DNA of 63,998 bases, filler included, from Dimargaris cristalligena (lineage: Eukaryota), in NCBI GenBank assembly GCA_003614675.1. It is 3 parts of 3 records of this genome, joined end to end, with 100 filler letters (N's around TTAATTAATTAA, not from the genome) between each part and the next. Parts side by side here need not be neighbours in the genome. Positions count along the whole stretch, not along the records: positions 44,262 to 63,998 come from ML002717.1; 2 more parts are not named here. One strand, written 5' to 3'. Positions 6,457 to 63,998 of this stretch are shown piece after piece (position 1 is the first letter of the stretch; every line of letters begins with the position of its first letter). Under the pieces are notes generated by a model. The model was given only the letters and a program-made list of their open reading frames with translations, did not search any database and was not told where the DNA came from. The position numbers were made by a program, and so were the translations under genes.

Positions 6457-6724
6457 ATAGTTCTTGGCCCTTCTATGTAAGAATTGAAGAACCGCCCAGG
6501 CCGGCCCTTTAGGTTTCACTGGCCCTCTTTTTTTTAAGGCGCGTTTTTCTCATGCGAATCAATCTGACCAATTGTCGGCTCTCGTCTTATTCTATCTACC
6601 ATTCCCAGCTACCTATTGCAGTTTATAGCGGCCGGTTTTTTATATTTTGTTTTCTTTTATATTTTTTTCGGCGAGAATCCATTTAACTACCCGGTAACAG
6701 TCGTCATTGATCCAGTCCTGCCTA

Positions 6725-9952: not shown

Positions 9953-10050
9953 ATAGATGAAAATCGGCCCAGCTGTATAAGGCTTTTAATAATACGTGTT
10001 TGAAAAACCTGACGGAGGATTGACTGTCAATACACAAATACAATATTGGC
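9953..10050 (+). mobile_element. MITE family copy 2, partial and degenerate
   Basis: GATGAAAATCGGCCCAGCTGTATAAGGCTTT...AATATTGGC matches the left two-thirds of the consensus. Confidence 0.5.
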
Positions 10051-11342: not shown

Positions 11343-12916
11343 GTATGAAACCTGAAACTGATACCTTCCCATCGCAGCGTTGGCTCAACAACCGGAAAAG
11401 GAGTGGTTTGGTGGGCCGCATACTCTACTGGCGGTGTCTGCTCCAGGCTTGGCCGGGAAGGAGTCAGCGGTACCTAGCTCCTCTTTCGAACTACCGCCTA
11501 TGATGTTTGCACCTGTTAAAAATAAATATTGATGTGATTTGTAACCCAAGCACTTTCGTTGGTCTATTCTAATATAGTGGCCGCTGAACGGGGGTGGTAA
11601 ATGTACGAACTGTGAATTCAAGGGGGGGGGGGGTGTTAAGTGGAAAGCCACCAATACAATTAAGTCTACCGCTGAGGGCGGCTGATCAGGCCAAGTTGGC
11701 TTACCCTTAAGCTGCCTAATTGATGAAATCATGACGTACTTGGGATGCAAAATCGCCCAGGCTGGAATGCATTAGCACTCTGGGTATGCAGAGTCAACAC
11801 AGCGGTGCCAAGGCCAAGGCCAAGCCGATGCCCTTGACCCGAGAGCGGGGTGATATTGAACGGGAATCCCTTAATGGGGGAACAGAGTGCCCGCTAGGCT
11901 CGCGGTATGACGCTATAATGGCCTAGGGAATCTCGGTGCTTTCGGAAAGGATCAGCCTACAATGACCTAACTATCGCATACCGGTTCAGACAAGTGCGTA
12001 GGGTGGTGGTGATATATGTAAAGAAATGTCGTTTTTGCCTGAGTCAGGTCAGTCTCAAACGGTTGAAACGGATATCAGTAATGCCGGAAGGGGGTTGATT
12101 CGGAATGATTGGTGTTTCAACCCAAACACACGGTAACGGTAACAGTAACAGTAGCGAATGCCGTCTAGTAACCAGAAATTCCAGAACCGAGCTAGCTCAT
12201 TTACAGCAAAGCTACCCTATGGGGTGACTATAGTAGCGACCAGTGAAAAAACCGAAACGGGGTTGGCAAGGCCATCCTCCTAAAACGTAGGTGAGGTGGT
12301 AGCCATACCATCAAGGCCCGTGGCCCACCCACATCGTATACCTACATATATAATAGTACCAGAGCTATGGTTGGCTGGTGAACAGAGTGGAAGGGGTTAA
12401 TCATCTCACCCCAGACAATAGCATCGCGATCGGTTGTATATCCGAAGTTTAAAGAATGAAATAACCAATGGCGGGCATAAAGGGCTTATTCGGTGGGTAT
12501 TCGGAAAGGCTTATCAGGCCCAATGGGGTGTTTAAAGTGGTGATATGCCCCCCTTCTCCGCTTATACGATTAAGTGCATGATTGCGGGTGGGACGGCACT
12601 GTCGATATATACAATTGTCCACGAGGCAGGTGTCGACGGGAGTGTCTCCACTTTAGCCCTAGATATGCCTGTCGGACCATTTTAAAGTCACCGATATCGA
12701 CGAACACCCCGATACCGCCTAGGTTCTAACCCAATTAGTCCATGTCTTCTCCATAATAGGAATATTAGCGATGATACATGCAAAACCCCCTGCTCTATAC
12801 AATATTCACAGCCCACCGCCAATAAGTACATGGTCCTCCGCATGGAAACGATGTCGTGGGTACAGCCACATACATAATTCGTTCTCGCCCCCCCTACCTC
12901 CATGTACGAAAACCAA

Positions 12917-13058
12917 TATGGGTGAAATTCAAACCAGCTGTATAAGGTTTTACATAATACATGTATGGTTGAATATATGTGAGAATGGCTTTTAACCAGT
13001 AATATTGGCCTCATCCAATGGATTTTTCATTATACCGTCTGAATGAACTTCTCTCATA
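12917..13058 (+). mobile_element. MITE family copy 3
   Basis: TATGGGTGAAATTCAAACCAGCTGTATAAGG ... TTATACCGTCTGAATGAACTTCTCTCATA. Confidence 0.85.
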
Positions 13059-19096: not shown

Positions 19097-20028
19097 ATGC
19101 TAGGTAAAATATGCGCCTTCAATTAGTCTAATACCATTTCTTAAGACATTTTTTTAGCATAGTATCCTATTTTCGTGTGGGCGTGGAAGCGTGTGTACCA
19201 TGCCATACATTTGCACCACCCTGGGCCATCAACGTGGGATTGCCCTTCCTCCCACCCCCACCCACACTCGCCATCTCCACTTAACTGTACTGGAACTAAA
19301 ACTGATTCACATTGAAAGGGTCATATTCCTGTTAATCACCACTAGGTACCGATTCACTCAACCGGTTCTTCGGATGCCGACCGGGACGGCCCACGCAAGT
19401 CTACAGCGTTAAACGAAAATCCCTATTCAGTTCCACCAAGTATTTTTATAACGAGAAAAAAGCACTCGTCTACATCAAGGAGGAGCCCAAGCAATTCGAG
19501 AATCTCAAGACTCTGCGCCTAGCGGATAACCCGCGGGCCATTTGGGACATCTCCACCCACCCGTTCGACAAGTACTGTTTGGATACCCAGCCGGACATTG
19601 CGCCGCTGGATCTCAAAACCGCCCGCAAGCGCCGGCCGGAAGACCAGCCCAAGCGCCACGCGCCCGTCAAATGCCCCACCGAGCAGGACTTTGACGAGCA
19701 GGTGTACACAAATCGACTCACCAACGACCAGATCACGGTTACCCGACACGTGGACTGGTTCACCCTTTATTTCGTGTTTATGTGGCAGTCCGAGGAGTAC
19801 CGCTGGGAAACCGGCATTACCCTGACCCACTACAAGTGCGTTCGGCGGCGTACGGGACGGACCGTGGCTGAGTTTAGCCGGAACCCATTGTTCGGTAAAA
19901 CCCATGGCAAACTAAAATTCTACACGAGTCGGCGCATGACCTCCCAGTTTCGGGAATTTCTCATGATTACGCTACTAAACGTGTTTGAGCTGGCCGAGGA
20001 TAACCAGCTGATGGCTTTCGGGTGGTAG
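19097..20028 (+). CDS. Hypothetical protein, possibly Tubby-C/LURP-one-like beta-barrel; exons 19097-19103 and 19346-20028, about 229 aa
   Basis: ATGCTAG|GTAAAA micro-exon spliced to the TAG acceptor at 19345 gives an open frame with coding-like codon use. Beta-rich pattern 'YFVFMWQSEEYRWE...YKCVRRRTGRTVAEFSR...GKLKFY' followed by a terminal hydrophobic helix 'FREFLMITLL'. Confidence 0.7.
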
Positions 20029-22040: not shown

Positions 22041-22140
22041 NNNNNNNNNNNNNNNNNNNNNNNNNNNNNNNNNNNNNNNNNNNNTTAATTAATTAANNNN
22101 NNNNNNNNNNNNNNNNNNNNNNNNNNNNNNNNNNNNNNNN
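22041..22140. other. Artificial contig spacer (N-TTAATTAATTAA-N)
   Basis: N run containing a six-frame-stop linker at 22085-22096. Different genes are truncated on each side. Confidence 0.97.
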
Positions 22141-22142
22141 AC

Positions 22143-24071
22143 AATAGTACTACGCCCACTACTCGCAGTAGCAGTAGCAGTCCAGTTACTCGCCCGGTAG
22201 GAGGGGGCAGCAGTAGTAAAGATACTGCAACTACTCACAGATCACCGGTTCGACAGTCATCCCGGCGGATCTTGCAGCAACAGCAACTGAATCATGCTTC
22301 CTCCCATCCGCTGGCCCTATCATCGTCGTCGTTGTCGACATCTTCAACCACCCCTGACTCGGCGGTATCCCCGTTAACGGTGATGGTGGCGGCAGCAGTA
22401 GGGGAGCGACAGCAACAGGGCGAAAAGGAGGCTACCCCTGAAATGACACTACTCGCTTTAGATGACGGTAGTGGCGGGGCCTCCTCCTCAAATAGTGGGG
22501 CGGAATCGGCCGACGTAGTGGACGGGTTTAGTTTAACCGATGGGGAAGACGAGGTGATGGCCAGTCAACATCACCACAACCACCATAACCATCAGGAAGT
22601 GGGGGGGCGGACCGGGTCCCAACGTCGCCGATCCCCCCATCCGACTACGGTAACCGCGGGATCCGCCGATGATACCGCGTCATTTACTTCAAGTAGTGAC
22701 CGAAGCAGCACGAGTGGTGGTAGTAATAATGGTGGTGGATCGTCCGCTTCCTCCTCCCCCGTCGTGGCCGCCCGGAAAACGACCGCGTCGTCCGGTCGCC
22801 GATCCTGCATTTCCTGCAAAAGCTCCAACACCCCCTGCTGGCGTCCCGGTTGGGATAATAACATTTCCCTGTGCAACTCTTGTGGTTTACGGTAAGTAGT
22901 AGTGATATAGAGGCCAATCTACAGATGGATTGGGTTGGATTTGATTTGATTTGATTTGATTTGGTTATTATTTTTTTGGTTTGATTTGATTTGACTTGGC
23001 GTACTTTCGGAGGGGGGGTGTACCATGTTGTGGACGGGCGGAGGGAAGGAACGAAGGGGGCATTGTGATGTAGGGAATGTGTACTTTCTGTTCTTTTCTT
23101 CTCCTCCCCTCATACCCTGGACGAAGGAATGTGCTATTCTTCTATTCTAGTCGGGACCATCGTTATTCTCCGTCAAATCTCTTCACTTCTAGACTCCTAC
23201 CCCTCCTCCTCCCGTACTCGCGCTCCGTGCCGGCTTGCGCTATTTTTCCTCCGAAGTGGTGCAAATGGGCTTTGATTCACATTGGGAGGCATTCTTGTGC
23301 GACTCTATTACTCTTTCTAGAGTGGTGAATCGGAGGGACGATGGTGGAGGAAGAGAGCAGGGCAGGGCAAGGATATAGAGACCGGACGGGACAGGATGGT
23401 GACCCCGAAAAAAGCACGCGGCCAATACACGATCCCCATTGGGGTGTGTGTGTGTGTATTGGTCCGCTGGTTGTCAAATGATCTGAAATTGGGGGAAGGG
23501 GGTATTGCAAGTTCCACAACCACCATTGATAGGAAGTGAGAGTGAGGGTGGATAGTGGTTTGGAATCATAGTCGGTGTTGTGTCTATCGATGGATCATCG
23601 ACAGTGGCGTGCCTTTTACCCTTCCCCCTCGCATTCTTCGCTCCCCCTCTCTCCCTGATCCTTCGTATCCGGTCACTTGACACATTCTTGCACTTGAAAC
23701 CTTTGGCCATAATAATAATAATAATAATAATGGCGACATCCCCCTCTGTTACGCCACTATTTACTTCCACCGTTATGAACGGAACCAGCAATCCTGGAAA
23801 CCCTAAATCATGACCTAAGGACTGCAAACGATGACACTAGATATGCTTAATTGTCATCCGAACTGTACTAATTACCTATCCCCACATGTATCCTACTGTA
23901 TTTCTTTCCAATCCATTGATCTTGATACAATCTACAATTACCGCGGATCCGAATCATTACAGCTACAAGAAGTCCAAGATCTACTGCAAGAAGTGTCTCT
24001 ACGTTCCGCTCAAGAGTGAAATCCAGCCCGGTTTAAAGCATACTTGCACTAAATGCTCGCACGTTTCCTAA
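22143..24071 (+). CDS. Ash1-type GATA zinc-finger transcription factor, 5'-truncated; exons <22143-22891 and 23963-24071
   Basis: 'CISCKSSNTPCWRPGWDNNISLCNSCGLR|YKKSKIYCKKCLYVPLKSEI...CTKCSH' is joined across a 1071-nt GTAAGT...CAG intron. The frame is open back to the contig edge. Confidence 0.85.
22936..22993 (+). repeat. (TTGAT)n pentanucleotide repeats in the GATA-gene intron
   Basis: Seen directly; two blocks interrupted by a T-rich spacer. Confidence 0.85.
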
Positions 24072-28367: not shown

Positions 28368-30360
28368 TTATTCCCATTCAATAGTACTCGGGGGCTTCGA
28401 ACTGACGTCGTACACGACCCGGTTCACGCCCTTGACTTCATTGATGATGCGGTTACTGATCCGTTTCAGGACGTCATAGGGCATGGGGAACCAATCGGCG
28501 GTCATGAAATCGGTACTTTCGACGGCGCGCAGGGCAATGACCTGTTCATAAGTCCGTTTATCACCCATGACGCCGACGGACCGGATGGGCAATAAGGCGG
28601 CGTAAGCCTGGGAAATCGAGCGGTACAGACCGGCTTTCTTGATTTCTTCGATATAAATGTGGTCGGCCAAACGGGCGATTTGCACCTGGGGACGGGATAC
28701 TTCGCCGAGGCACCGGATGGCGATACCTGGGCCGGGGAAGGGATGGCGCCACACCAACTCGTCGTCGATGTTGAGGAGTTTGCCCAACGCACGGACTTCG
28801 TCCTTGAAGAGTTCGCGGAGGGGTTCGATGAGTTTGAGGCGCATGTTTTCGAGAAGACCGCCGACGTTGTGGTGGGTTTTGATGGTGGCGGAGGGACCCT
28901 TGAAGGAAATGGACTCAATCACGTCGGGGTACAGGGTGCCCTGGAGCAAAAAGTCGATTTTACCGTGACCGGACAATTCGCTTTGTTTGTCAATGATGGC
29001 GGCCTGGTCCTCGAAGACTTCAATGAAGGTGTTGCCGATGATCTTACGCTTCTTTTCGGGGTCAGTGACCCCGGCCAAGCGGTCCAGGAAGAGGTCACTG
29101 GCGTCGACTACTTCGAGGTTGATACCCAGGCGGTCCTTGAGGATGGCCTTGACGCTCTGGCATTCGTTGAGGCGCATGACACCGTTGTCAACCAGGACAG
29201 CGTGGAAGCGGTCCCCGATGGCCTCCTTCATGAGGCGGGCGGCGACGGTGCTGTCGACGCCTCCACTGACGGCACCGACGACCTGACCGGTGGGGCCCAC
29301 GACGGCCCGGATGCGCTCGATTTCCTTGTCAATAAACGAAGCCATAGTCCAGTTCGCCTCGCACTCACAGATGCCCAGGACGAAGTTACGCAGGACCTGT
29401 TTGCCATCCACGCTGTGGGTGACTTCGGGGTGGAACTGGATACCGAAGATCTTGGCGTCATCGTGACCCACGGCGGCGTAGGCGGAGGTGTCGGTGGAGC
29501 CGATGATGCGGAAGCCGGCGGGGGCACTGTCCAAGTGGTCGCCGTGGCTCATCCACACCTCGCTGGTCTCGGGGAGGCCTTCGAACAGCTTGTCCACAAA
29601 AGGGTGCTCGGCGTGACGCACGATGTTCAGCTTGGCGTAGCCGTATTCGCGGCGTTCGCAAATGCCGATTTTGCCGCCCTTGTTGCGGGCAATTTCCTGC
29701 AGGCCGTAGCAGATGCCCAGCACGGGCACGCCGAGCTGGAAGACCTTGGGGTCGACGTGGGGGGCACCCTCATCGAAGATGGAGTAGGGGCTACCCGACA
29801 GAATAATACCTGAAGGGGAGTGGTGGTGAAAGGATATTATTACATGGTTAGGTTAGTTAGGATTGCCATGGGTGGATCAGTTGCAGTCGGAGCCGGTTAA
29901 TATTAGGGGGAAATGGAGTGTAATTATAATAATAATGGCTTTTCATGCCCTGTGGATTTCCCTATTTTTAGGGCTAGTGATATCCCAGGGCAGAACTATA
30001 TATATAATGATAGGGGTGAAGTTCAGCTCGGCTGTATAAGGTTTTAACTGATATGTGTATGGGAAAATCGGTGGGATATGTATTTTCACCTAATCGTATT
30101 GAATTTGCCTTATCAAAAGGATTTTTTGTTATACAGCCTGGTTGAACTACTCCCATATGTATTATCGGCTTATGAGAAGAAACAGTGTGCTTACCCTTGG
30201 GCTTGAAGTGCAGGTCGTCGATTTTCTGGGTGCAGGGCAGCAGCTCACAGTAGACACCGGCCTCGCGAACGCGACGGGTGATGAGATGGGAGTACTGGGA
30301 GCCGAAGTCCAGAATCAGGACGGTGTCGTAGAGAAGGTGAACCTCGGTGACGGTATCCAT
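28368..30360 (-). CDS. GUA1: GMP synthase (glutamine-hydrolysing); exons 30360-30195 and 29809-28368, about 535 aa
   Basis: '[18 protein letters not shown]', '[10 protein letters not shown]', 'LGICYGLQ', 'QFHPEV', 'SGGVDS', '[10 protein letters not shown]' and C-terminal 'KPPSTIEWE'. Confidence 0.97.
30011..30157 (+). mobile_element. MITE family copy 4, inside the GMP synthase intron
   Basis: TAGGGGTGAAGTTCAGCTCGGCTGTATAAGG ... TTATACAGCCTGGTTGAACTACTCCCATA. Confidence 0.85.
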
Positions 30361-32470: not shown

Positions 32471-35049
32471 ATGCTCAGTCGGTTTACAGTCTCTGTGCGC
32501 CCTCGGCGCTTAGCCGCCCCTGTCCACCACCACTCCCGCTGGCCTTTATATTCCCGGTCCGCCGCTGCCTTCCCGCTGCTGCCGCTATTATCCCCTTCTT
32601 CTTCTACCTCCTCCCTCCTTCGCCCGTCCGTTGTTCCTACCCGTGCCTTCCACCCCTCCCCCTTCGCTTCCAAGTCCAAGTCTAAGTCATCTTCGACCGG
32701 TCCCTTCAACACTGCCAAGTCAAATATGGCCTCCACCGCCGCTCCTTCTATCGAAACCCCCCCGTCGTCGAAGGTTCTGACCATCGACTCTATCAACCTC
32801 CGTATCCGCAACGTCGAGTACGCCGTGCGTGGTGAGTTGGCTATTCGCGCCGAGGAACTCAAAGCGGTATGTATTTGTATTTATCATCATCATCGTCATT
32901 CCATTCGGTTTATCAATCGGCGCTCGGTCAGGGGCGGTATGGAATATACACATGTACGTCCGGGGCTGGGCCATATGCTGCTTTACCCCCGATATAGATT
33001 ATTAACCCCACCTTCGCTTGGTATAATCCTTTTACGCCATCGCCATGCCCCTTATCTGGCCCCGCTCACCAGCGCATTGAAAAGGGCGACAAGACCGTCA
33101 AGTGCAAGAACATTGTCAACTGTAACATCGGCAACCCCCAGCAGCTCAAGCAGCAGCCCATCACCTTTTTCCGACAGGTAATAACCATTCCTTGATTGTT
33201 CATTGGGGCAGCTGCTTCTCTTAATCGTCGCTCCCCTTTCGGATCATCACCCCACCACTACCTTTAAGAGTGGTGTGCACCTCGACTATGGCTTGGATCA
33301 CACCATTTCCGAACTCTTTAACGATTTTCCGGCCCTGCAATTGCCCCAATCTACCCTTTATGAACAGCCCTGATATACCGGCCCATTCGACTTGTGCGAC
33401 CTTTCCACCCAAAGGAAGAATGGGTGGTTTTTTGATGGTGCTACCGGTCTACTGACCTCGGTGTTCCCCGAGTAGATGATGTTCCGTAAAAGGGGGGAGC
33501 TGTCCCTATATACCATATATTTTCCCATTGAATTGCCGTTTTGTGCATAAGGAAATGCCTACCCCTACCCATTCTACCCCCAACCAATATACCCCCTCCC
33601 CACGTACACATTTCCTTAGTCTGGGATTACCAAATGCAGGGTCTTGTACATTCATTAATCGGTCCCTCTAACCCTCTAACTAACCCCCTTTTTCACAATT
33701 CTTACCAACCCTTCCCATCCTAACCCTCTAACCATTTGATTCTCCGACCCTATTCCCATACCATATACCCTTCTTCTCCTACTTAACCTAGGTGGCCGCG
33801 CTTACCGAATATCCCGAGCTACTCGACCCCAAACATGCCGACAAAGTAACCCCGCTGTTCCCCGCCGACGCCGTGGAACGCGCCCGAGAGATCCTGAACA
33901 GTGCCGGTGGAGCCATCGGCGCCTACAGCCACTCCCAGGGCATCCGGGCCATCCGGGATCACGTGGCCCAATTCATCGAAGCCCGCGATGGCTTCCCGGC
34001 CGACCCCAACCTTCTGTATCTGACGGCCGGCGCTTCCTCCGGTGTCCAGCAAATCCTCCAGCTGCTGATTAGCCACCCCAACGTAGGGGTGATGATCCCC
34101 ATCCCGCAGTACCCGCTCTACACCGCCAGTCTGGCCCTCAACAACTGCCACGCCGTACCCTACTACTTGGACGAAGCCCGGGAATGGTGCATGGACCTGA
34201 AGGAACTCGAGCAATCCCTCACCGAAGCCCGCGACCGAGGCGTCGAAGTCCGGGCCCTAGTCATCATCAACCCCGGTAACCCCACGGGCCAATCCCTGAC
34301 CTGGAACAACATGGCCGAAGTCGTGGAATTCTGCCACCGCCATAAGCTGGTCCTCCTCGCCGACGAAGTCTACCAAACCAACATCTACCTCCCTGAAACC
34401 CGCCCGTTCCACTCTTTCAAAAAAGTCCTGCGGTCCGCGAAGGACCCGGCCATTCGCGATGGCCTCGAGCTCGTCTCGTTCCACTCCATCTCCAAGGGCG
34501 TGGTCGGTGAATGCGGCCGGCGCGGCGGCTATTTTGAATGCACCAATTTGGACCCTTTGGTCCTTGAACAAATCTACAAGATGGCCTCCGTCAACCTCTG
34601 CCCCAACGTCCAGGGCCAGATTTTGGTGGACCTCATGGTCAAGCCGCCCCAACCGGGTAGTGCCTCTTACCCGCTTTACCAATCGGAAACCCAAGGCATC
34701 TACGAAAGCCTGAAACGGCGTAGCGTGCGGCTCCATACCGCGTTCAACTCCATGGAAGGGTTCAGCTGTAACCCGGCGGAAGGAGCCATGTACCTGTTCC
34801 CCTCCATCACTCTGTCGCCCAAGGCTATCGCCGCCGCTGAAGCGGCCGGTAAAAACCCCGACGACTTCTACTGCTTGGCTATGCTCGACGCTACCGGTGT
34901 GTGCGTCATCCCCGGTTCCGGGTTCGGCCAAAAGCCGGGCACTATCCACTTCCGGTCCACTTTCCTGCCCCCCCGAAAATCTGTTCGATAGTTTCATTGC
35001 GGATTTGAAGAAGTTCCATTGCGAGTTTATGGATAAGTACCGGGATTAG
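32471..35049 (+). CDS. ALT1: Alanine aminotransferase (PLP, class I/II); exons 32471-32866, 33073-33177, 33792-35049, with an apparent +1 frameshift at 34968-34974
   Basis: 'VEYAVRGEL', 'NIGNPQQLKQQPITFFRQV', 'GAYSHSQGI', 'INPGNPTGQ', 'ADEVYQTN', 'SFHSISKG..GECGRRGGY', 'HFRSTFLPP'. The expected C-terminus 'ENLFDSFIADLKKFHCEFMDKYRD*' lies in the +1 frame. Confidence 0.95.
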
Positions 35050-38000: not shown

Positions 38001-38244
38001 ATTTTAACCTAATGATCCAAAACCACCTTGGAGCATAAGACTTAGGTGGCCGTTAAGTATGCCCGGGAGAACGTAGAGTTTATATTCCGGCCGTCTTCGT
38101 ACCCTTTGTTGACGCCCTTGATCAGCTGTCGGTTGATATTCCCAGTTAAATAATGGTGTTGTAAATGGGAATACTCGCAATATTTTGCTTGGTATATTCG
38201 AAAATGTGGTGACTGGTCAGTTAGTCTAGTCCAGTTGAAATCAA

Positions 38245-38386
38245 TATGGGTGAACTTCAACCCAACTGTATAAGATTTTACACAATATATGTATGGGATA
38301 ATATGTGGGAGAATAACTTTTGACCAGTAATATTTACCTCATCAAATGGATGTTTCGTTATACAGCCTGGATGAACTTCTGCCATA
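38245..38386 (+). mobile_element. MITE family copy 5
   Basis: TATGGGTGAACTTCAACCCAACTGTATAAG ... TTATACAGCCTGGATGAACTTCTGCCATA. Confidence 0.85.
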
Positions 38387-40634
38387 TGCAGTCCTTACTG
38401 AAATGTAAACTCTCAAATACCCATGTAATCGCGACTAACTCTACACTAAACGTTGTAACCGAAACTTGACCCTGGACATATCCCAATCTGACTCAGACGC
38501 GCATCAGTAAAACTATACACACTTAAATATGTCGATGTTGATTTCACCTGCATCCTTTGGTTGCGAGTTTTTTTTTACTAATGAGCTGGTAACCCCTGGT
38601 GCGGTATGGTGTCCATTAAAATGCGAGTATTGCGAATCCCACAGCCCTTTTTGGACAAGGCGTATAGGCGGCTTTCAGGTTTTTTCTCATCGACCTGAGT
38701 ACTTAAGAACTCGCGCTGTACTGATTATTTACATGGGCATATGTATATAGTTTATTTTATTATGATATAGATATCTCATTAGAGCTTAGTGTAATAAGTT
38801 GTATATACTTAACGCCCTTCCCAACTTTTCCAATCTTGACGAGCATCGGTCAGGCCACCCCTTCTATTGGTCAAAAACAGGTTTTAGTTGATTTAGGGGC
38901 AGCTGAAAAACCATGTGCGATTCAGTGGCGGCGGCAGGGTTAATGTGGGTGAGAAACGCACCTACATTTATATGTAAAAAGCCGAGTCATTGCCTAATAG
39001 ATACACCCCCCCTCCCATCAGCCAGGGTTAGAAAACTAAGGCGAGTGGCGGAAAAGCGGCCCTGCTCACCAGCTTCCCACGTCACATGGGCGACTTCAAA
39101 GAAAAATTGATCAGTCAGTTGACCAGCCAAAAACGAAAATATATTAGGGCGGCCAAGCTTCACACCCAAGACGGGGGACCATAATGTTTTTAATTAAACT
39201 AGGAGGACCCTCGGACGATACCTTCCCGACATTTTCCCAGCCTATAGGGGTAGCAAACACCAATTTGTGGACGGATAGTGGTTCTTGTTCATAGTAGGGA
39301 TATCCTGAGTAAGCTGAATGTCGGCTTTTTGAAATACCATGCCCTCGGGGTATAACTTAGCGAGCGTGGCTAAATGTGGTACGGTGGGGTATTAAGGCTA
39401 TCTACCTAACCCAATTGATTGTTATAGTGTTTTACTAACTCACTCAACGAAATCAACAACCCGAAAAGGTGCGTTGTAGGGGCTCTCTGGAATTTTTTAC
39501 ACTCGCACTCCAATAGGGAAGGCAGAAGTCCGAAAAGGGAACAACCAACTCCGAGAGACACTAGAACACCTCGTATCACCCCGCCTTACCGAAGTAGAGA
39601 GGGATGGATCAGTGTACTGTAAAAAAGAGGGTATTTCCTCTCGATTCCATTCCTTCTTAATTCTCCGATTGGTGAAGGAGGTGGCCCACCCTAATAAAGA
39701 TCATCCCCACCCTCCATCCCTCATTGGGGGGCTGATGCAGTCAACTCCGGCAACTTTAATAATAATATCAGTGGCCACTGCCATTTTTAAGGAAGAAAAT
39801 GGTCGCTGGGCGCAATATTAGAGACACAACCTTACTATAGATTTAGTCACACCCTAGCACCGCATAAGCTATTTACAAGGATGGAAACCCCCGAAAGCTA
39901 TTGCCCCACACCCCAACGGCGAAATACAGAAAAAGTCGTGGTACTATTTTTGCGCGACCATTTGCCACTCCATTTCGACCCAATCTCATTCATTCGATAA
40001 AGGGAGAGAGAGCCCCTTATCGCTTTATGTGACTCCTTTCTGTCAAGCTCCCCACCCACGTTCACTTGCGTCTCTTCTCATTATTCCGAGCCCCTAGGGG
40101 TTACATGAATATATATATATATATATATATATAGAGTGGGCTGCCCGCCTTCTCCTTCTCTAATATATCCTCAGTGCATCTTACTTGTTATCTCCAGGTT
40201 CCTTGTCCAATACTTAAAAGGTACGGTAATGTATGGTTCACCCAATTCCCGTGCCTCTCCGCTTCCCACCAATCTATTAGTCTTCGTATTATCGTAAAAC
40301 AGCTTGAGCCAGTTATCTATCTACCCCTTTTTTTCCAATACTTTCGATAAACCTCTATATTCCCGTTTACCCAACACTACATTATTATCCTGCCTTATTT
40401 CTTCGGTATTATTTATAATAGAGTCTGGACGGGTGCCCGTGTTTAGTTCATTATATCTAGTTACTCAAATCCATTGTACTTACCTGGCAAACATTAATAC
40501 TATATACCCTACGTTTGGGTTGGGGCAATAATTTCTCAAAAAAGCTTCTCTATACTTCTTTTCTACCAGCATATATAATACCCCTCGGCTCCCAATTAGC
40601 ACCCGAACCACCCTACCCACTCCACTCACCCGCC

Positions 40635-42579
40635 ATGGCCGCCAGCTCGCCCCCCCGCAACCACCCCCATTACCCCTCTGCCCTGGCGACAGGTGACGGT
40701 GCTGTTGCTGTTCCGAATCAGCGAGCCCATCAGCTTCACCGTCCTCTTTCCCTTCGTGTACTTCATGGTACGCGATTTCCACGTGAGTGACGACCCGAAA
40801 GAAATCGGCTTCTATGTCGGAATCGTCGCCTCGGTGTTCTCCATTGCCCAGCTTACCACGGGCATGCTGTGGGGTTTCCTGTCCGACCGTATCGGCCGTC
40901 GACCCATTCTGCTCATGGGGGTCATGGGCACTGTGGTGTGTTCGGTTCTATTCGGTCTGAGTAAGTCGCTCCTGTGGGCGGTGCTGGTGCGGATTTTGTG
41001 GGGCACCCTGAACGGCAACGCCAGCACCTCCAAAACGATTATGGCCGAAATTACGGACGAGACTAACCAGGCCAAAGGGTTTAGTCTGCTGCCCATGTGT
41101 TGGAACTTGGGCAGTATTATGGGGCCCATGATAGGGGGTCTGTTGTCGAATCCCGTGGAAAATATTCCTAGTATCTTTGGGGACAGCGTACTGTTCGCTG
41201 AATACCCTTACTTGCTGCCCTGTCTGTTTTGTGCCGTCTTGAGCATGGGTAGTTGGTTGATGGGCTTCTTCTTTTTGGAGGAAACGCTCCATAAGAAATT
41301 GCCCCAAACCCGGTCGGGGTCGTTGGTCTCGGTGCCTACTTACGTGGGCCAGTTCCCCCAGAAGGTCGGCTTAGGTTTGGGTGGTTCTCCGACATTGTCA
41401 TTATCTTCGTCGTCAATGTCGGCGGCTTCGGCCTTAGTCTTGGCAGTGAAACCGAATGAGCGTCAATCCCTACTTGGCCGGACGTCGCATGATGCCTCAT
41501 CCATTACCATGGCGGCCGACTACCACGCCATCGGGGCCACCTCGTCGAGTAGTTCGGCCCGGGGTGATATTGACAGCGATGTTTGTATTGACGATATCGA
41601 TGACGACGGCTGTCGTATGGATAAAAGCACTACCACTACCCCGTTATTGGCCACTTCATTGACAGTCGACTCCAAAGCTCCCGTGAACGTATCCTCCTCC
41701 AATGACGATGGCGATGACGATGACGACCACTTGAGCGCTTGGTCGTCTCTAAAGGTCGCTTTTAACCGCGACTCGCTCAAGTGTATCGCCGGATATTTTG
41801 GCATGTCCCTGCTGGCTACCATCCTGGACGATATCTACCCCATCTGGTCCGCCACTGAGCCGGAACTAGGCGGCGTGGGCCTAAGCACCCAAGCTATTGG
41901 GTTTACGTTATCCATTTCGGGCCTGTCCGTACTTTTCATCCAAATCGTCATTTACCCCAAAGTCCAACGCGTATGGGGCAGTCTTCTTTGTTTCCGGTAC
42001 GGTACTCTCCTTTACGCCGGTCTGGCCTTGGTCTTCCCATTGATTACCTTATTGGAAGCGGGTCGTCATGCCCAATTCTGGGACCCCCCCTCCCTGCTTA
42101 CTCTTTTAACGGGATCCGAACTTGAACCCGAACTCCCCAACCTTCCCGTGCATCAGCCTATCCGGACCGTTACTTGGATCGCCCTTATTGCCGCCCTCAT
42201 CGCCCGGGTCTGCGGTAGTACGTTTGGTTTCACTAGCGTCAACATGCTCATCAACAATTCGGTGCCGAACCGCGAAGCTTTGGGTACCGTGAATGGGTTT
42301 GCGCAGAGTGTGGGCTCCTTGGCCCGTGCCATTGGCCCCATGTTAGCCGGGGCGGCCTGGAGTTGGTCCCTGGTCAATGGACGGCCATTCCCGTTCAACT
42401 CTTACTTTATTTTCCTGCTAACTTCCCTGATTGCCCTGGCGACGTATTTGGTCACTTTCACATGGCATCCCCGGATCAATCAACGGGCGTATGCGGCGGA
42501 ATCGACTGTGATCATGTCCGTGGCTGGGACTGGGACCGGCCTCGTTCCCCATACCGTTAAATCACCTAGTCAAGTATGA
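40635..42579 (+). CDS. MFS transporter (ZIFL/TetA-like, DHA1 group), with an apparent +1 frameshift at 40650-40656
   Basis: 'TPLPWRQVTVLLLFRISEPISFTVLFPFVYFMV', MFS motif A 'WGFLSDRIGRRPILL', 'GPMIGGLL', 'LGTVNGFAQSVGSLARAIGP'. The strong-context ATG at 40635 (CCGCCATGG) is one base out of frame with the main ORF. Confidence 0.92.
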
Positions 42580-44261: not shown

Positions 44262-44265
44262 TATA

Positions 44266-44407
44266 TATGGGAGTAGTTCAACAAGGCTATATAACGAAAA
44301 ATCCATTTGATGAGGCAAATACTACTGGTTGAAAATAAACATCCCGCCGATTTTCCCAAACACATAACGGTTAAAACCTTATACAACCAAGCTGAACTTC
44401 ACCCATA
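44266..44407 (-). mobile_element. MITE family copy 6, at a contig start
   Basis: TATGGGAGTAGTTCAACAAGGCTATATAA ... TTATACAACCAAGCTGAACTTCACCCATA. Confidence 0.85.
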
Positions 44408-45870
44408 TGCAAATGGAATTTCCTAATATAAACGACCAGAGGATTTATTTGACATTAATGAAATGCATCGCCCTGGCCAATTCCAAGTTCAAATCGGGTA
44501 AACAATCCGCACCTGCACTGGTTCCGGGCCCAAATAAACAAACGCGCTACTTTATCGGTGACAGGTATGTCAATTAAGTTTAAATGGCCATGGCTTTGTG
44601 ACAATGGGCAGTGTAAGTAAGTTTTGTTAATGCAACTGGGTCACTCTGTCCACACGCTCTTTATTCGGGGTCTTTTATCTATAGTAGTGTGGCGGGCAGT
44701 CGCTATGCTCCCTGTGATTCAAGCGTGACCTCTACCTGCCCCACTGCTCTTTTACCTGACATGCCACCCAAATGATTGGACAGGCACTTGGAAGCCCATC
44801 TTTTGCTATGAGTGGGAAATTTATATTTGGCCTTCCCAGCCACAAAAACTACGGTCCTCACTTTACTATACGCATTTTTATAAATATACGTGTATACTGG
44901 AGTACTAAGACCAGATATGATTAGAATACTGCACTTCAGGTATCTGGACGCCGTAGTTATGAAGGTATACCCTCCCATCCTGGGTGGAGAAATGGGAGAG
45001 GGCGGATTCCTAAACCCCAGCTTACCCTCCGCTGTTTCTCGCCAGCTGGGGTTTGGTTCTTGCGTAGGCCACGCCCTATGTTTTGCTTCCCCAGATATAT
45101 ATTTTTATTCACAGGCTTCCATTGTTTACTATTCTGACTGACAGCGCCTCGTTTTCTTATAATAAGGAAAGATAAGGTAAACTAAAGTCCCGCTTCGGGG
45201 ATTGTTAAAATCCCGCCTCTTTATGACAGCTGCCTATTTCCATCCCCCAGAGGTTTGACAGGTCTAGTTCCTGGCTTTATGAGTCGAAACAGTCGGATTG
45301 GCAAATACAGCCCCCCTACTCTTTTATGCCCGTATTATTATTGTTTTTTTTGGTGGAGGTTCCACCGATACTAAAATACTAACAATCCATTTCGTGGCTC
45401 AATTCATCCATCTGAGTATCGTGAAGCTATCGGTAGAGTACATCTCCAACGGGTGGGTCAACTCCCCCCCCCCCACCACCACTTCAAGTCAGCTAGCCTT
45501 CATAAAAGAGCCATTTATAACGGGGGTCCTTTCCGCCCCCACTTCACCTCATATAGTATTGTGCGCCACACATGATCCGATATGCTGAATTCTTCTCCAT
45601 CCTACTGAACCTCTTTCCTAAGTTTTCCCCCACCAAAAGATTTGCTGGCCATTTCAACTGGCATACCTGTATCTACCAAATACATTTATCGCATAGTTTG
45701 GCACTTCACGCCCGCTGCTTATATAAATAGGGGTTTTTTGACCAACCGACACCTTGCTCAGACTGGACCTATTCCTATTCCAACCTAAGCTACTTTACCC
45801 TATATAATCCCTTTTGGGCTATCCCTAATTGTTTCAATTTCATTTCTCTTGATTTTGGGAGGGAACAGCC

Positions 45871-46329
45871 ATGTCTGCCTACTACACCATCTCGACTTCC
45901 GCCCACCGAACCTACACCCACGTACCGGTGGACCCTTCCATACGCTACCAAGTATACTGTAAACACCTCAAGCGACTTCTCCGCCGGGTACCCGGTATAG
46001 TCGCCTGTTCCCGCCGCAGCGGAATCCCCGACCTGGCGGAAGTCCCGCCGCTGGATGATAGCCAAATGATGGTGGTGGCCTTTATGTTAGACATGGCCAC
46101 CGATACCATTGAAGTGCTGGCCCGGCGCTACGATGATGACCAAGCCGCCCGGAATCCGGGCAACTCGCGGCAAGCGGCTTATCACGATTTATTACAGGCG
46201 GTCGAGGAACGCCGGGCGCGGGCCCGGTATTACTTAGTGCAGGGCCAGGCAGCTAGTAGAAAATTCGGCAAGTTTATCCGTTGGGTGGATACGATGGAAT
46301 TCATCTTGAGTCGGCATATTCTTGCTTAG
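45871..46329 (+). CDS. Hypothetical protein, 152 aa, intronless
   Basis: GC-rich ORF with a GCCATG start context inside AT-richer flanks; TATAAATA at about 45722. No family recognised. Confidence 0.65.
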   Translation: MSAYYTISTSAHRTYTHVPVDPSIRYQVYCKHLKRLLRRVPGIVACSRRSGIPDLAEVPPLDDSQMMVVAFMLDMATDTIEVLARRYDDDQAARNPGNSRQAAYHDLLQAVEERRARARYYLVQGQAASRKFGKFIRWVDTMEFILSRHILA

Positions 46330-47240: not shown

Positions 47241-50038
47241 TCAAATAGTATTAGACGTGGTCAGCTGGCGTTTGCGGGTATTTCGAGTCGGGTGAATGGT
47301 GGGAGGAAGCGATGGTGATGGTTTGGAAACTGGAAAAATATGGCACTTCTGGGCATGCTTCCACCAATATATTTGCCGAACATTGACGGTGATAATTTTG
47401 ATGCTCTCCAGCGGGATCCATTGGCTACATTGGTGACAGTATCCCTCCATCATAAGCCGAGTCGTCAGTACCTCAGACCCCTCCGATGGTGAATTGGAAC
47501 CTAGATGATTAGTGTCTAATAAACCTAATCAAACAGAAATAAAATTAGAGGTTACCATGTTTTCCCTCATACTAATATGCAATAGTAGTAACATTTAGCA
47601 GGGGAATGCGGCACTATCATTTAGTAAAGGCGGGGATTGTGGCACGTCAGCCCCATCCCCATCGCGCTTCTATTGCATTTATATTTCACCAAATGTACCA
47701 TATTCCCCTTAGACTATCCAGTCCAGTAGTGTAGGACCATCCACTTATTTGCGCATCTACATACCTTGACCATTGGCTGGATTGAGTTTACGTTTGTTTC
47801 TTGACTTGCGACTCCGAAGTGGCGCCTTGGGTGTACTGTTCGGTATCGCTATAACCACTTGGCGTACTGCCCGGGGGGGTTCGTACGGCTGGCATGTAGC
47901 AGACGAGATGCCATGAAAAAAGTTCATATGGTACCTAGATGAGCATTGCAAGAATGGTAGAAAAGCACTTAGACCGGAGTTGATGAGGCGACGACAGAAA
48001 TTGGTAAATGGCAATGAAGGTGTCCCTTTTTCTTCAGAAAAATAATGTAAAATGCATATGTAAAGAAAGATAGCGGGTGTAGTAGGTAAAGTAATAAAGC
48101 TCACCAATATGCGCTGACCTTGGTCCGGAAGGTCCGCAACTCGCCATTGATCCAGCATAGAGGGCACACGCCTTCCTTTTCTACACCTATCCCGCTTGTC
48201 CATCGGGGATTATACATATCATCAAGGGCAATGGGCTTATTATCTACCATACTCCGACGGACCAGGGTGTTACCCGGTACCCGACAATCGAGCGACTTGA
48301 CCTGGGCATGAAACCGGTTAATGAGATCCGGGGGCGTCATAAAATCACTTGGGGCGAGCGGGGGCGCCTTTTCCAGTATGCCAACGGGGCTATTGTTACG
48401 GTCACCACGACTCCGGTCCGTTTTCGGCGATGGCAAAGGGGATAAGGAAGCTGTTGGTACTCTTGACTGTAAATTACAAGAGTGGGCGGCATCGTGGCTA
48501 TTTTTAGATACAGCGGTGGGTGGCATAGCTTCCAGCGTAGTGGCAAGATCCCCCACTAAATTGGCGGATATAGTCGGGGGATCACCACAGCTGAAAGAAT
48601 AAGTGCTATAGTGCCGATCCCACGTATCTTGTTTAGGTACCAAGCGAGGCGTGGGCAAGGGGCTTGAATTTCTAACACTGGTCTTGCCGATGGAAGTCGG
48701 CGGTGTAAGATGATGGGTAATAGTTGGGCTGGATTCGCCTGTTTGAGACTCCTAAGCGGCAACAGCAGAACCGGTGTAAATCCAAATGAAAGATAATTTG
48801 GCGACCGAAACATTAAAGGGCGATTAAAAAACACAATTATGTGATATGGCCACGCAAGCAATAGATTTACATCTAGAGAGATACTAACAACAATTTTTAT
48901 TCAGACAGTCATCTGGTTGTAAAGGATCACCTATACTTACATCGGAATAATCACTGAGACTGCCATTATCACAGTTTGAAGCTGGTTCGTTGGCGGTCGG
49001 GGATATCTGTAAAGGCCAACTGGCTTGGGATTGGGAACTGAGTTGGCATGCCTCTTGTTGTCGAAGGAGTTTGGTTGGTGTGATGCATCCTGACGATGAA
49101 AAACGGATTAAAAAATACATTATTAAATGTATTGGATTAGATTAGGTTTAAAACAGAGCAGCCCAGTTAAGCAAATATGGGATAGTAAAAAAACCCACAG
49201 CCGAATATAACATTACTCAATCCCATTACAAAGGCCAGCTTACGTTCTACCGGGGCGGTGTCAGAGGGCCAGGATTGGTCCCCCGCTTTCTCTAGAAGTC
49301 TCTTGGCGGCATCCCGAAACGATTCTGTTTGGACGTCGGGCAATTCCGCAACTTGGGCCAAGGCCACACCAAATTGGCACCAAAAGGCATGATCAATGGG
49401 CGAGGTAGGTGGTGTCATAGCAGCCACTATTGATGAGCAGGGCGTCGTCAGACTAGTGGTATTGGGGGCCGGTAGTGATTGGGAAGCCATGGGTATCGGC
49501 GGAGCATTAGAAACCACGGGCGATTCCACCCCGTCACCTTTTTCACTGCAACCTACGGTGAAAAAGCTATATAGTGGATATTCAGTGTCCGTTGGTGGAT
49601 GAAATGAGGAGAGTTGCGATAGGGGCAATGATGTGGATATCCACAGATTGCTCGTCAAACCGGTGTCCTCAATAGATACTGGGTGCGAAAGCTCGGACGA
49701 CGGCGGGAGATGGCAAGGTTTCACCAGGTCATTTTGGTGAATTGCAGTCGGTTCGCTCGAATAGGCGTTGAACAAATCGGGGGCAGGTATGGGATGAGTT
49801 GTCGTGGACCACAGCTCACTGATCAGCGGGTCCGCAGAAATCGGGCAGTCTACGCGTGGATAAAGAGAGGGACATGTCCAACGTAAGCGATATAAGCAGT
49901 GCGGTAAATAAGCCCATGGTTAAAACAATACCACCTACAAGGGGACACACGTTCCGTACTTAAAGTTCGTCTGCACCTTTGCATAAACTAATTACCTTTA
50001 CTAGATTCAAAGTCGATGGAAAAAACGAAGGAATCCAT
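47241..50038 (-). CDS. Rua1/Meu26-like (DUF4451-type) putative transcription regulator; multi-exon (3' exons ~48680-48105, 47934-47765, 47500-47241; 5' exon boundaries tentative)
   Basis: Spliced product contains 'DMYNPRWTSGIGVEKEGVCPLC...KVSAYW|YHMNFFHGISSATCQPYEPP...EGYCHQCSQWIPL...YWWKHAQKCH'. Phase-consistent upstream exons lead back to ATG 50038 (MDSFVFSIDF). Confidence 0.8.
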
Positions 50039-59635: not shown

Positions 59636-61182
59636 TTACTGCTGGCTGGATGGTCTCGGAGGGGGGAAACCCTCACGATATTTAATCAAGTACAGCTGAT
59701 CATCTAGAACGGATTTATCCAATACAAGTGTCTCGTCGAGATCGAGCCAGTTATCCTTGAGCAACTTTCGGGCGACCGGCAGGCGAACTCGAAAAGCTAG
59801 CTCGGGCTTGCCACTAGAATTACGACGTACGTACACTAGCCCTCTACCTGTCATTTCGGATAGAGTATCAGTATCATTAAACCGTACCCGAGGAGCCCTG
59901 GTGCACTTTTCCTCGGCCATACTGAATCCTAAAGCATCGGCATAACCACAGTTAGTTGTAATTCCACCGGCTATTTTGACCTCTTGGTCAGGGGGGAAAT
60001 CGCCAAACTCCAAAAGCAGCATGGCCGCGTAACTGTACCATCTAGGTTTGATGTACTGACGGTTTTTTTCCATCAGACCCCGCACTTTACCGAACTCACC
60101 GGCGATGACCAGGACCGCACAGGCACTGGCCCAGAGCTGACCGTCTTGTCGCCACTTGATTCCATACTTCCATTGATTGACGATGTTATGGGGGCTTAAT
60201 TGAAGTAGTGGGTCGTCTTGATACATGTTTTGAACATCCATGGCCAGTGTTTTATCATCAAAAAAATCTGAAACCTTTGAGATGGTGCTGAAGATGTAAT
60301 CCACGGACAATTCTGGTAATACCTGCAACATGGGAAAAAGAACCCGCTTGTGGGCATCGCTCATTCGCGTATAGTCCAGGTACGCCCATTCCTTTTTAAT
60401 ATCTTCCAATATTGTAGGATCTAATCGGAAGTGCGATAAAGGCCGATCGAGATAGGCTCTCTCAGTCAAATACTCAGCTCTTTCCGTAATGCGGCCACCA
60501 CATATCTCCCAGACCACTGTTGTAAGTAAACCCAGCGGTTGCATTGGAAGGAGCAAATGTAAAGTACTCAAGTTGAGTGGTTGGCCATCCAATATCAGCT
60601 TTATGGAGCCCTCCACGAGCTTTCCAAAGGTGGAAAATAAGACAATACAAGAAAATGACAGCATAGCATTGGGATTAGGAATAAGTAATTAGTCAGTGAT
60701 TCATTCAATAGAGGTCGGCTATGAGATAGAATATACAGAGCTACCCCGATCGCTTGCCTGTCATTCAGCGGGCCATCGTAGTTCCGACGAAGTTGACATA
60801 CAGGGTGGCTAGATGAGGAATAGTATGTCTGGTAATTCATTTTAGATAATTCCAGTGAACTTACTTGCAAATAGTCTTGGCTTCCTTTATGCTGCTCGAT
60901 AGTATTATGCAAATGCCGATTGACCTTAGACATTCGCGCCAGGTCTTTAGCTGGCAAACGGTCTAGTATCTTACCGATTGTTTCCTGAGGAGTGTTGCTA
61001 AATGGATTAATCTTAGTTGAAAAATTGCTATCTATTCTGTAATCAGGCAGGTGTTCTGGGGCATCGTAGAAGATATCATTGTCACCATCTACTTCTTCCC
61101 CATCCAGGGGCTTAGGGCGACCGACCGCTGCATGAGCCAAAGCCAGGCCTAACAGAGTGATGGGAGCAAGGTACGGCCTCAT
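59636..61182 (-). CDS. Predicted secreted F-box protein; exons 61182-60865 and 60619-59636, about 433 aa
   Basis: Signal-peptide-like 'MRPYLAPITLLGLALAHAAVG' and F-box-like 'FSNTPQETIGKILDRLPAKDLARMSKVNRHLHN'. A CAA|GTAAGT donor, CTGAC/CTAAT branch-like site and AAG acceptor join the two listed ORFs in phase 0. Confidence 0.72.
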
Positions 61183-61648
61183 TATCAACGAACGGAAACA
61201 AGGGAGAGGGAGGGGTGGGCGAGGGGTTGAAAATAGCTATAATAGAATGGCCAATGGCGAATTATCCCAAATAGCAGACTATGGTGGTGAGAAATGGTTG
61301 TAAAAGATGGTGTAAGCCGAAACTGATGAGAATCCAGTGAGTGGGGTGTGGATATGGTATATTGAAACAAGGGGGGAAACCGTGAGGTTTTATATTCGAG
61401 GCGGGGGTTGAAGAGGAAGTGACGCTAGGTAGAGACATATCCACAGAGCAAAACATATGAGCGACTCGCTTGTAAATGTAGCACAGACCTAACGCACCTT
61501 ACACAGACGTGATGCCACATTGGAAATATGATAGGCTAATATGCTAATGTCCTCTGCGTGTCCCTTGCCAGAGAAAAAAGGGGGAGGTGCTACAAGAGTG
61601 CAACGGGAATTCTCCAGCCGACCTATTGGGCCGAGTCTACCGCTGCCT

Positions 61649-61792
61649 CTAGGTGAAATGTGGACTAGTTGTATGAGGTTTTACATGGTATGTGCATAGG
61701 GAAATAAGCGGGAGACCCATTTTTAACCAATAATATCAGTCTTATCCAACAGGGTGTTTTCATTTTACAGCCCCGTCGAATTTCTCCCCCAT
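61649..61792 (+). mobile_element. MITE family copy 7, degenerate
   Basis: AGGTGAAATGTGGACTAGTTGTATGAGGTTTTACA ... TTTTACAGCCCCGTCGAATTTCTCCCC; the internal sequence is colinear with the family. Confidence 0.65.
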
Positions 61793-63998
61793 CTTTAAAT
61801 AGATCAAGAGAATCATTCCGGGAAGTTGTGACACAGGCAAGAGACTATAGGCTATTCAGCGAGAGGTCTCCCCCATTGGTAATTTATTTACCTGGCACCT
61901 ACCTACCTACTCGACCACACTGCCAAACTGGTGGTGCAGCCACTGCCCTAGGCAAGACTTGCCACCAAGAGAACCAGGCCACCTATCTTTCAAGTGATTG
62001 GAAGGTGCACCAAAAAACCATCAAAGAAAAAGGGTCGGGTTTATAAATAGGATGGTCCCTGACCAATACCTCAAAGCCCCCATTCACCATAGCCTTCTAT
62101 AATTACACCTGAGTACCCCTTGACCATCTTTTTTCAAGCCTAAATACTATTTATCATGTATATTGGCCTTCCAACAAAAAAGGAATTCATAAATGTGATT
62201 TTTGGGGAGAGGGTGATAATTTCCCTCGTCCTCCCATTCGACTCCCTCATACATTTCAGGGAGGGAAGTCATTTCCCCTCTTCCTATCTGCCCCCGGAAT
62301 TGATGACTTTGAGTGTTCCTCATAAACCTTTTTTCCTCTTTTGAGTATATTGGTATAACAAAAATGGGTGACTCATCGAGTTCCCCTGGGAAGAAAACGG
62401 TCCTTGCCCTTGAAAAGCAGGACTACTAGTTATTACACCCCCCCCTAATATATTCACTATACGTACCACTAGTATTTGCACCTTGGCTCCATTAGCCATT
62501 GTATTCAGCCAATGTCCTTTGATATGGGTGGATTCCAGAATTGAGCCAAGTGGGGCTCTCTCAATCCCCTTTTGGCTTGAAAATTGGGCTGCTTGATATT
62601 AATTAGCTGTTTTGACCATTCAACGTACAACCATTTCATGTACTGTGTGTCCCATGGTAGCTATAAGGATAGAGTCAACTAATTGTAATGGTTGTCGAAC
62701 TACCTAGGTGGAACGGTCTATCTAGCCAATAAAAGAGCTGGTGTAACAACCAGCTGGACGGAAGGATTTATCCCCTCCAGATTATTATCAAAACCAAGTG
62801 CTCCCGCCTCCCCCTAGTTCGGGGAGGTTCCTTCTTTTACAATCCCTATGTAACCAACCCTTTATACACTTAACCCACTGGTCTTATATTGACAAGTAAT
62901 AACGAAATAATTCGAAAGTCAATTGACAGTCGAATGGGAACCATCACTCTCCCCCCTCCTGGGATCCCCACCACATTGTTCGCAGGAGCAGACCTAAAGG
63001 AATTGAGCATAAAAATCAATTATAATAGTAGAGGGGGAGGTAAAAGATTGTAGTGCGAAAATGGGTATCCTATCTTCCTCCTTCTGTTATTCCCTCCTAC
63101 TAACCAACCCACTATATTTTCGTTGATTTTAAGCTGAAATACATATTCTGCTGTGTTCATTACACATGGACACTACACATTTTTTGGCAATTGTAATCAG
63201 CGAATTTGTCCACCAAGCATAGTAAGTAGACCTACTATATAACAAAACGTCAACAGTATCACCTGGGTTAACCACTCTTAATCCATTAAGAGTCCCAGGG
63301 ATAGGCTTCTAATGGTAGGCGGGGCTCAGGCTCAGCCAAGTGGGCTACTAGCATTAGGGAAGGACCAGTACTAACCAAAAAAGGGTGAGTGCAGGCTAAT
63401 GCAAGGGACATACAGCAGGCACACTTACTGGCTAATATAATGGGTGAGTATATAAGGAGTTTATTGGGGTAAACTATGGGGGTAAGAAATAAGCTAAGGA
63501 ACTAAACCAGTCCCAGAGGGGCCCGGTTATTTATATGTAGAGACCACTCATAATGAGGAGTCTTTAAGAGCAATGGGATAACTAAAGAAGAGGTGAGGGT
63601 CAGGGCCTTGACTGGGAGGCTTGCATATGGAAGACTCCACTAAGAAAGGAGGAACATTGGGTCAGCTGGTGGAGTATTGCATGAGAAGCATTGGGGCCCA
63701 GTCATAGTGGATTATATAGCAAGGGAAGAGTAATATGGTGCAATAAGGCAAGATCAGATGGGACAATTAGTATTCCTGTATTTAGAGAGGATTAGGTGGG
63801 CCGACAGATAACATCTATTAATAATAATCCACCTTGGTGAAAAAAATTGGAAAGGAAATAACCCAATTGTACAACTTACATTCTGTAAAGAACTGAACTC
63901 AAATCCTTGAAAACTGAACTTTATTTGAAAAGGTAGGTGATAAAAGGGAAAGGTGATGATAGACTTGCTGTTCCAAGAGGTGGCAGTAAGGGGGAGTA

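Follow-up and report, generated by a model that had tools for sequence, protein, structure and literature searches.

A gene of Dimargaris cristalligena encodes a protein in which a predicted signal peptide is followed by a linker, an F-box and a C-terminal domain for which we found no clear match (Table 1; positions count along the window, that is, the whole 63,998-nucleotide stretch of DNA that was analyzed). The chances that this gene, hereafter the query, specifies a lineage-restricted secreted F-box adaptor of a Dimargaritales-type mycoparasite, aimed at the Skp1 and SCF ligases of the host, appear to us about even. This interpretation is favored by an F-box that exceeds the Pfam cut-off in the query and in one relative (P0003), and, in seven sequences chosen for an intact F-box, by an invariant Pro-x-Glu core and by conservation of the F-box to the same degree as the C-terminal domain. 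It is favored also by a −3/−1 cleavage pattern common to all 10 N-termini aligned, a co-varying cysteine pair, the lack of an alternative Met, and membership in a divergent family of 20 with two subfamilies and relatives in a haustorial mycoparasite. Family profiles that match F-box chains first, low GC3 and eroded repeat DNA nearby point the same way. Other observations weaken it: a single relative of 19 exceeds the Pfam cut-off, the F-box is lost or shortened in three of nine, the profile matches to the PDB are weak with NEK2 close behind, the F-box of the P0003 model is of low confidence, the query has Thr for Leu and no Trp, and the database model of the gene has 201 aa.

The mechanism that we propose has four steps. 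The signal peptide would carry the protein into the parasite ER and be cut after residue 21, as features of the N-terminus predict. The protein would then be released at the haustorial interface and enter the cytosol of the host hypha; entry is invoked because the cytosol and nucleus are where Skp1 and Cullin1 reside, and we know of no host-entry motif. There the F-box, on its flexible linker, may bind host Skp1 and join a host SCF ligase. Finally, the C-terminal domain may hold a host protein for ubiquitination, with different targets for different paralogues, a step proposed by analogy with F-box-LRR effectors.

Table 1. Features of the gene and its surroundings, in window coordinates.
Feature	Position	Strand	Basis or remark
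Gene with two exons and a 433-aa product (signal peptide, linker, F-box, C-terminal domain)	59636..61182	-	tblastn, intron-model scoring
Predicted cleavable signal peptide, residues 1-21, X-Pro dipeptide after	61120..61182	-	Hydropathy; aligned N-termini
Acidic tract and FFAT-like core, residues 27-43, in unconserved linker; query copy only	61054..61104	-	Matrix score 1.5
F-box, residues ~61-98	60889..61002	-	PF00646, 28.6 bits; weak family-profile matches to solved F-box chains
Phase-0 GT-AG intron, 245 nt	60620..60864	-	Best of 81 models; acceptor could lie up to 7 codons away
Exon 2, 327-aa mostly helical domain with small beta-sheet	59636..60619	-	Pfam, AlphaFold2, fold searches; presumed target-binding part
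Possible disulfide between the Cys at exon-2 residues 224 and 239	59903..59950	-	Subfamily alignment
TATA-like hexamer	61389..61394	-	~210 bp upstream of ATG; sequence only
Decayed MITE copy, ~150-bp family (context only)	61652..61792	.	Repeat comparison; ~470 bp upstream of ATG
CpG-depleted DNA, probably old repeat (context only)	61901..63998	.	CpG o/e 0.26

A Divergent Family of Paralogues

A search of 1.84 billion representatives at E ≤ 0.001 returned 20 matches, namely the gene itself and 19 relatives. The family is divergent (median pairwise identity 27%), and a tree of the C-terminal domain separates it into groups of 13 and 7 with 100/99 support. Two relatives carry a species name; both are from Dimargaris cristalligena and they fall one in each subfamily, so the species has at least two deeply diverged paralogues. 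The initial annotation had supposed a parasitic, possibly mycoparasitic fungus, and these two relatives agree with this, D. cristalligena being a biotrophic haustorial mycoparasite. Dimargaritales parasitize fungi by means of appressoria and haustoria, according to the available parts of PMC9866270. No second family member was found within the window. A single-protein query, which reaches close relatives only, gave 35 pattern matches in bacterial and archaeal genomes, of which none was confirmed as a relative. The gene appears to be one paralogue of a lineage-restricted, divergent family.

The F-Box Is Recognizable in the Query and Drifts in Its Relatives

The F-box-like motif proposed initially is matched by PF00646 over residues 65–98 at 28.6 bits, above the Pfam cut-off of 20.5 (E = 1.3e-6). 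Among the 19 relatives, P0003 alone also exceeds the cut-off (25.0 bits), P0009 has a weak match (E = 0.21) and 17 have none, ten of the 19 beginning within or just before the C-terminal domain and so lacking an N-terminus for F-box comparison. By alignment, an F-box-like segment is present in seven of the nine relatives that have an N-terminus, in shortened form in one of them (P0014); in P0004 and P0017 the N-terminus is present and no F-box is recognizable. Conservation was measured in seven sequences chosen for an intact F-box, with P0004, P0014 and P0017 dropped. In this chosen set the Pro-x-Glu core is invariant, and the F-box and the C-terminal domain have 26% identity each (BLOSUM 0.81 and 0.83 per column, respectively). 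The linker has 15% identity and a BLOSUM value of 0.02 per column.

A family profile searched against the PDB had the F-box chain AnkB (5k35_A) as its top match, a weak one (E = 0.037) centered on the F-box. In a second family-profile search FBXW7, AnkB and Dia2 led, again weakly (E = 0.12–0.31), and NEK2 came next at 0.58. A kinase-like reading based on NEK2 chains (E = 0.58–0.88) was dropped, these matches being non-significant and no kinase domain being prominent in the fold lists. Exon 1 used alone as a query returned no match, and none of 206 candidates matched when exon 1 was compared with longer proteins, a null result that is weak evidence. In the model of P0003, the corresponding block forms helices at 75–84 and 87–106 with low confidence (pLDDT 56–71), and no F-box chain appears among the top fold matches of that model. 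PDB alignments show that the query F-box has Thr in place of the Leu before Pro and lacks the Trp, both of which we take to be usual F-box residues. To judge from sequence, the F-box is real in the query copy and is drifting across the family.

This drift can also be read as loss. The protein might be secreted and act by its C-terminal domain alone, either extracellularly or in the host, with the F-box reduced to a relic, or to a pair of structural helices in the course of being lost. The absence of the segment from two of the nine relatives with an N-terminus and its shortening in one, the single relative of 19 above the Pfam cut-off, and a possible disulfide, which suits an extracellular protein, all fit such a history. 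The F-box segment is nevertheless as conserved as the folded C-terminal domain across both subfamilies, and the Hessian fly effector family SSGP-71 likewise includes F-box-less members, as far as the available parts of PMC4617103 and PMC10317074 describe it. We consider an F-box relic unlikely, and of the alternatives it is the one that survives best.

The C-Terminal Domain

The region initially described as some 330 unrecognized residues is 327 aa long and has no Pfam match at E ≤ 1. The AlphaFold2 model of exon 2 is confident (mean pLDDT 88.1, pTM 0.89) and mostly helical, with three short strands. Fold searches with it gave no clear match, whether by Foldseek against the PDB (best E 0.17), against a viral library (best E 0.29) or by VIA-align (best Z 5.0, rmsd 4.0, 133 aligned), and searches with the P0003 model were similarly without a clear match (best E 0.18; best Z 5.8, rmsd 3.7, 149 aligned). 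Scores of this kind reflect common helical packing and are no proof of a new fold. Exon 2 had no usable match in the ESM Atlas, where P0003 gave leads under 0.9 only, two F-box clusters at 0.79 among them. Among 21 members, NCBIfam provided one weak match (E = 0.052) and PHROGs none (0/21). The Pfam search, which picked up LRRs in a different gene from the window, found none in the query at E ≤ 1 and no ankyrin match in the query or its relatives; the exon-2 model is not a repeat array. Several of the conserved positions are arginines located on the C-terminal strands, and our guess is that they bind an acidic or phosphorylated target. Because the domain folds confidently in the model and has no match, a solved structure of it would be informative.

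A domain of this kind need not hold a substrate. The protein could enter the host and occupy Skp1 as a decoy, blocking host SCF ligases rather than delivering anything to them, with the C-terminal domain contributing stability, entry or a separate activity. Retention of the F-box beside a domain unlike known substrate-binding folds would agree with this, but a decoy would have no need of numerous paralogues whose C-terminal domain is large and divergent, and we consider this outcome quite unlikely.

The Linker and Its FFAT-Like Motif

In the P0003 model the linker is disordered, residues 16–73 lying below pLDDT 50. An acidic linker resembling an FFAT motif had been proposed, and both attributes are present in the query, where residues 37–43 score 1.5 with the matrix of Table EV4 of PMC7705450, its position 4 altered to the conventional acidic residue. 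A score this good arose in 0.2% of 20000 shuffled linkers and in 0.6% of 3000 random 433-aa proteins, and we estimate the chance of one occurrence among ten full-length members at roughly 6%. The resemblance did not extend to the linkers of the nine relatives, distant paralogues rather than close orthologues, which score 4.5–8. Conservation of the motif had been put forward as a check; with none of the nine linkers scoring below 4.5, a conserved FFAT motif was rejected, and ER tethering is thus not a family trait. The query copy may have acquired the motif, or chance may have produced it; the motif is at most an add-on in a single copy, able to act only if the query protein reaches a cytosol. 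A weak FFAT-like stretch (2.5) also occurs at residues 433–445 of P0010, in a C-terminal extension, with a chance expectation of ~6% per protein.

FFAT-motif proteins and pathogen mimics of the motif are known (described in the available parts of PMC7705450 and PMC12411717). The query resembles them in having, within a disordered linker, an acidic tract followed by an aromatic-aromatic-Asp-Ala-x-Glu core, and differs in the Ile at core position 1 and in the absence of the motif from its relatives. The full proposal, in which haustoria of Dimargaritales mycoparasites deliver an expanded family of secreted F-box adaptors with a new target-binding fold into the cytosol of fungal hosts and a working FFAT motif, gained by the query paralogue, docks the hijacked SCF ligase on the host ER, is decidedly improbable. 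Without the FFAT clause, the same delivery proposal has roughly even prospects.

Predicted Signal Peptide and Possible Secretion

The N-terminal signal peptide of the initial annotation is upheld by a rule-based check of n, h and c regions, −3/−1 residues and hydropathy. Residue 2 is basic, the hydrophobic core reaches an 11-residue Kyte-Doolittle mean of 2.22, and small residues occupy −3 and −1 before position 22. In each of the 10 aligned N-termini a basic residue close to the beginning precedes a short hydrophobic core, −3 and −1 are occupied by small residues, and +2 from the predicted cut is invariably Pro. Signal peptide, cleavage pattern and start codon are kept in every one of the nine relatives having an N-terminus, and the signal peptide is the most conserved region of the protein (45% identity in the seven sequences compared). 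The hydropathy scan and the C-terminus revealed no ER-retention tail or further membrane anchor in the query protein: the best 19-residue hydropathy of exon 2 is 1.43 and the C-terminus is polar. On the same measure, six of the 19 relatives reach 1.6–1.8. In the C-terminal domain, both cysteines of the pair are found in 12 of the 13 members of the gene's own subfamily, and the six proteins of the other subfamily with sequence at this site have neither. Because the two are kept or lost together, the pair suggests a disulfide and passage of the protein through the ER.

Dipeptides of the X-Pro type resemble substrates of Golgi dipeptidyl aminopeptidase. In six of the 10 N-termini two of them follow the predicted cut (residues 22–25; window 61117–61119 onward), and the double X-Pro could be a targeting mark.

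An F-box requires Skp1, which lies outside the secretory pathway. Ordinary fungal F-box proteins (PF00646) resemble the query in having an F-box near the N-terminus and a further domain downstream; they are typically cytosolic or nuclear and are not known to carry a signal peptide, and the C-terminal domain of the query differs in being neither WD40 nor LRR nor any Pfam family. Since Skp1 is found in cytosol or nucleus and both signal peptide and F-box are conserved, delivery into host cells is predicted. The protein might alternatively stay in the parasite, its N-terminus serving as an uncleaved anchor or being bypassed, so as to form an organelle-bound SCF adaptor in the parasite's own cytosol that the FFAT motif would link to the parasite's own ER. 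F-box and FFAT motif would then be cytosolic without any host entry, and in several relatives a Met does lie shortly before the F-box. Against this stand the shortness of the hydrophobic core, the −3/−1 pattern of the 10 N-termini and the co-variation of the cysteines; in addition, Met is absent from the query copy between residues 1 and 84, which leaves no later start codon from which a cytosolic form could retain the entire F-box. Such an anchored protein is very unlikely, and we retain the secreted adaptor as our working interpretation.

Gene Structure and Database Models

On the minus strand the gene runs through two reading frames from an ATG at 61182, the first Met of the upstream frame, to a stop at 59636–59638. 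We scored 81 open single-intron models against four full-length relatives. The top-scoring model has an intron at 60864..60620 (GTAAGT..AG) and divides the protein into 106 aa from exon 1, comprising signal peptide, linker and F-box, and the 327-aa C-terminal domain from exon 2. The second- and third-ranked models use the same donor with the acceptor moved by 3 or 7 codons. P0003, P0009, P0010 and P0014 align to both exons by tblastn.

The protein database entry for the gene, P0001, spans 60241..59636 and has 201 aa, beginning at an internal Met and lacking signal peptide and F-box. We read it as truncated because relatives match both exons as well as the part of exon 2 that is missing from P0001. 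The database models of P0002, P0005–P0008, P0011–P0013, P0018 and P0019 begin within or just ahead of the C-terminal domain. The models of P0001 and of 10 of the 19 relatives are probably shortened, and the size and architecture of the family are probably under-annotated as a result of such models, which may have concealed the combination of signal peptide and F-box. That the exons are separate ORFs rather than one expressed gene, or a copy in decay with the 201-aa model as the true product, is extremely unlikely: P0001 does start at an internal Met and the flanking DNA is eroded repeat, but both exons have open frames and align in order with full-length relatives, the best alignment comes from a canonical intron, and exon 2 is modeled at pLDDT 88 with the P0001-missing part included.

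Comparison With Known F-Box Effectors

Bacteria and one insect are known to use F-box mimicry, and we found no report from a fungus or from a fungus–fungus interaction in the searchable literature. The insect case is SSGP-71, whose proteins combine a signal peptide with an F-box that binds host Skp1-like proteins; the available parts of PMC10317074 and PMC4617103 describe 426 members with ~13 C-terminal leucine-rich repeats, acting on wheat, with Skp binding shown. The query probably shares with it an origin in a eukaryotic parasite, and it has in common an expanded family, a predicted signal peptide with an F-box, and some members that are F-box-less. If the adaptor interpretation is right, it would act in the manner of SSGP-71 and of bacterial F-box effectors. 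The two differ in that SSGP-71 belongs to an insect on wheat and has LRRs, whereas the query is fungal, probably acts on fungi, has a non-repeat, unmatched fold and is known from its sequence. Bacterial F-box effectors (Ralstonia RipG/GALA, Legionella AnkB) likewise place an N-terminal F-box before a presumed substrate-binding C-terminal domain; these effectors address host SCF. They are delivered by type III or IV secretion and carry LRR or ankyrin domains, in contrast to the signal peptide and intron of the query. Lacking LRR and ankyrin repeats, the query is no member of the SSGP-71, RipG or AnkB families. A candidate F-box effector of Mycetohabitans faces a fungal host, according to the available parts of PMC7482071.

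A literature search of titles and abstract openings, with subscription papers mostly outside its scope, returned no description of the present family. The available portions of PMC10406608, PMC8146833 and PMC7482071 describe no secreted fungal F-box protein. The Dimargaritales genome papers discuss proteases, chitinases and secondary metabolites in their available parts, and the term F-box is absent from the main text of either; 11 supplement files of PMC6784888 gave no match, and those of PMC9866270, outside the search, may list such domains. The family of predicted secreted F-box proteins with its unmatched domain is real, apparently undescribed, and probably that of a mycoparasite.

Genomic Context

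The AT-richness noted in the initial annotation holds: GC is 46.5% and 47.8% in the two exons (GC3 0.45 and 0.51) versus 55–64% in six Pfam-identified housekeeping ORFs (GC3 0.66–0.77), and the exons lie below all 13 other measured ORFs in both GC and GC3. The gene was also said to be bordered by a MITE and CpG-eroded DNA; both were found, on its 5′ side only. The CpG-depleted DNA contains 25 CpG against 95.7 expected, compared with an o/e of 0.64 and 0.86 in the two exons, and none of the seven short ORFs that overlap this DNA has a credible match in Pfam. The MITE family, which a local repeat scan did not detect, has six copies in the window (1030–1174, 12910–13059, 30010–30161, 38238–38387, 44262–44408 and 61652–61792) and a fragment near 9950–10002, with ~30-bp terminal inverted repeats and 69–85% identity between copies. 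The copy upstream of the gene is the most decayed (~69% identity). The copy at 30010 sits between two GMP synthase coding parts and is probably intronic in that gene. Effector genes are often repeat-adjacent, and low GC3 in an eroded repeat neighborhood fits such a setting. This context is weak evidence for an effector, since the MITE also lies near housekeeping genes.

The Pfam-identified neighbors are ordinary eukaryotic genes. Downstream and convergent is an Rsc7/Swp82-type chromatin remodeling subunit (PF08624; 56250–58175, +). The others encode a short-chain reductase (5303–5998, −), a Mex67/NXF export factor (6698–8869, +), a GATA factor (22089–22895, +), GMP synthase (28368–29852, −), a class I/II aminotransferase (33792–34991, +), an MFS transporter (40600–42579, +) and, by a weak match, a Rua1-like regulator (48101–48751, −). 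GC-rich ORFs of 230 and 158 aa at 19336–20028 (+) and 45853–46329 (+) have no credible Pfam match. An intronless ORF of 301 aa at 3713–4618 (+), beside CpG-poor DNA and without a Pfam match, gives the impression of a domesticated retrotransposon capsid-like protein. A second dispersed repeat is present at both ends of the window (235–323 and 62782–62870), its copies being 75% identical over 91 bp.
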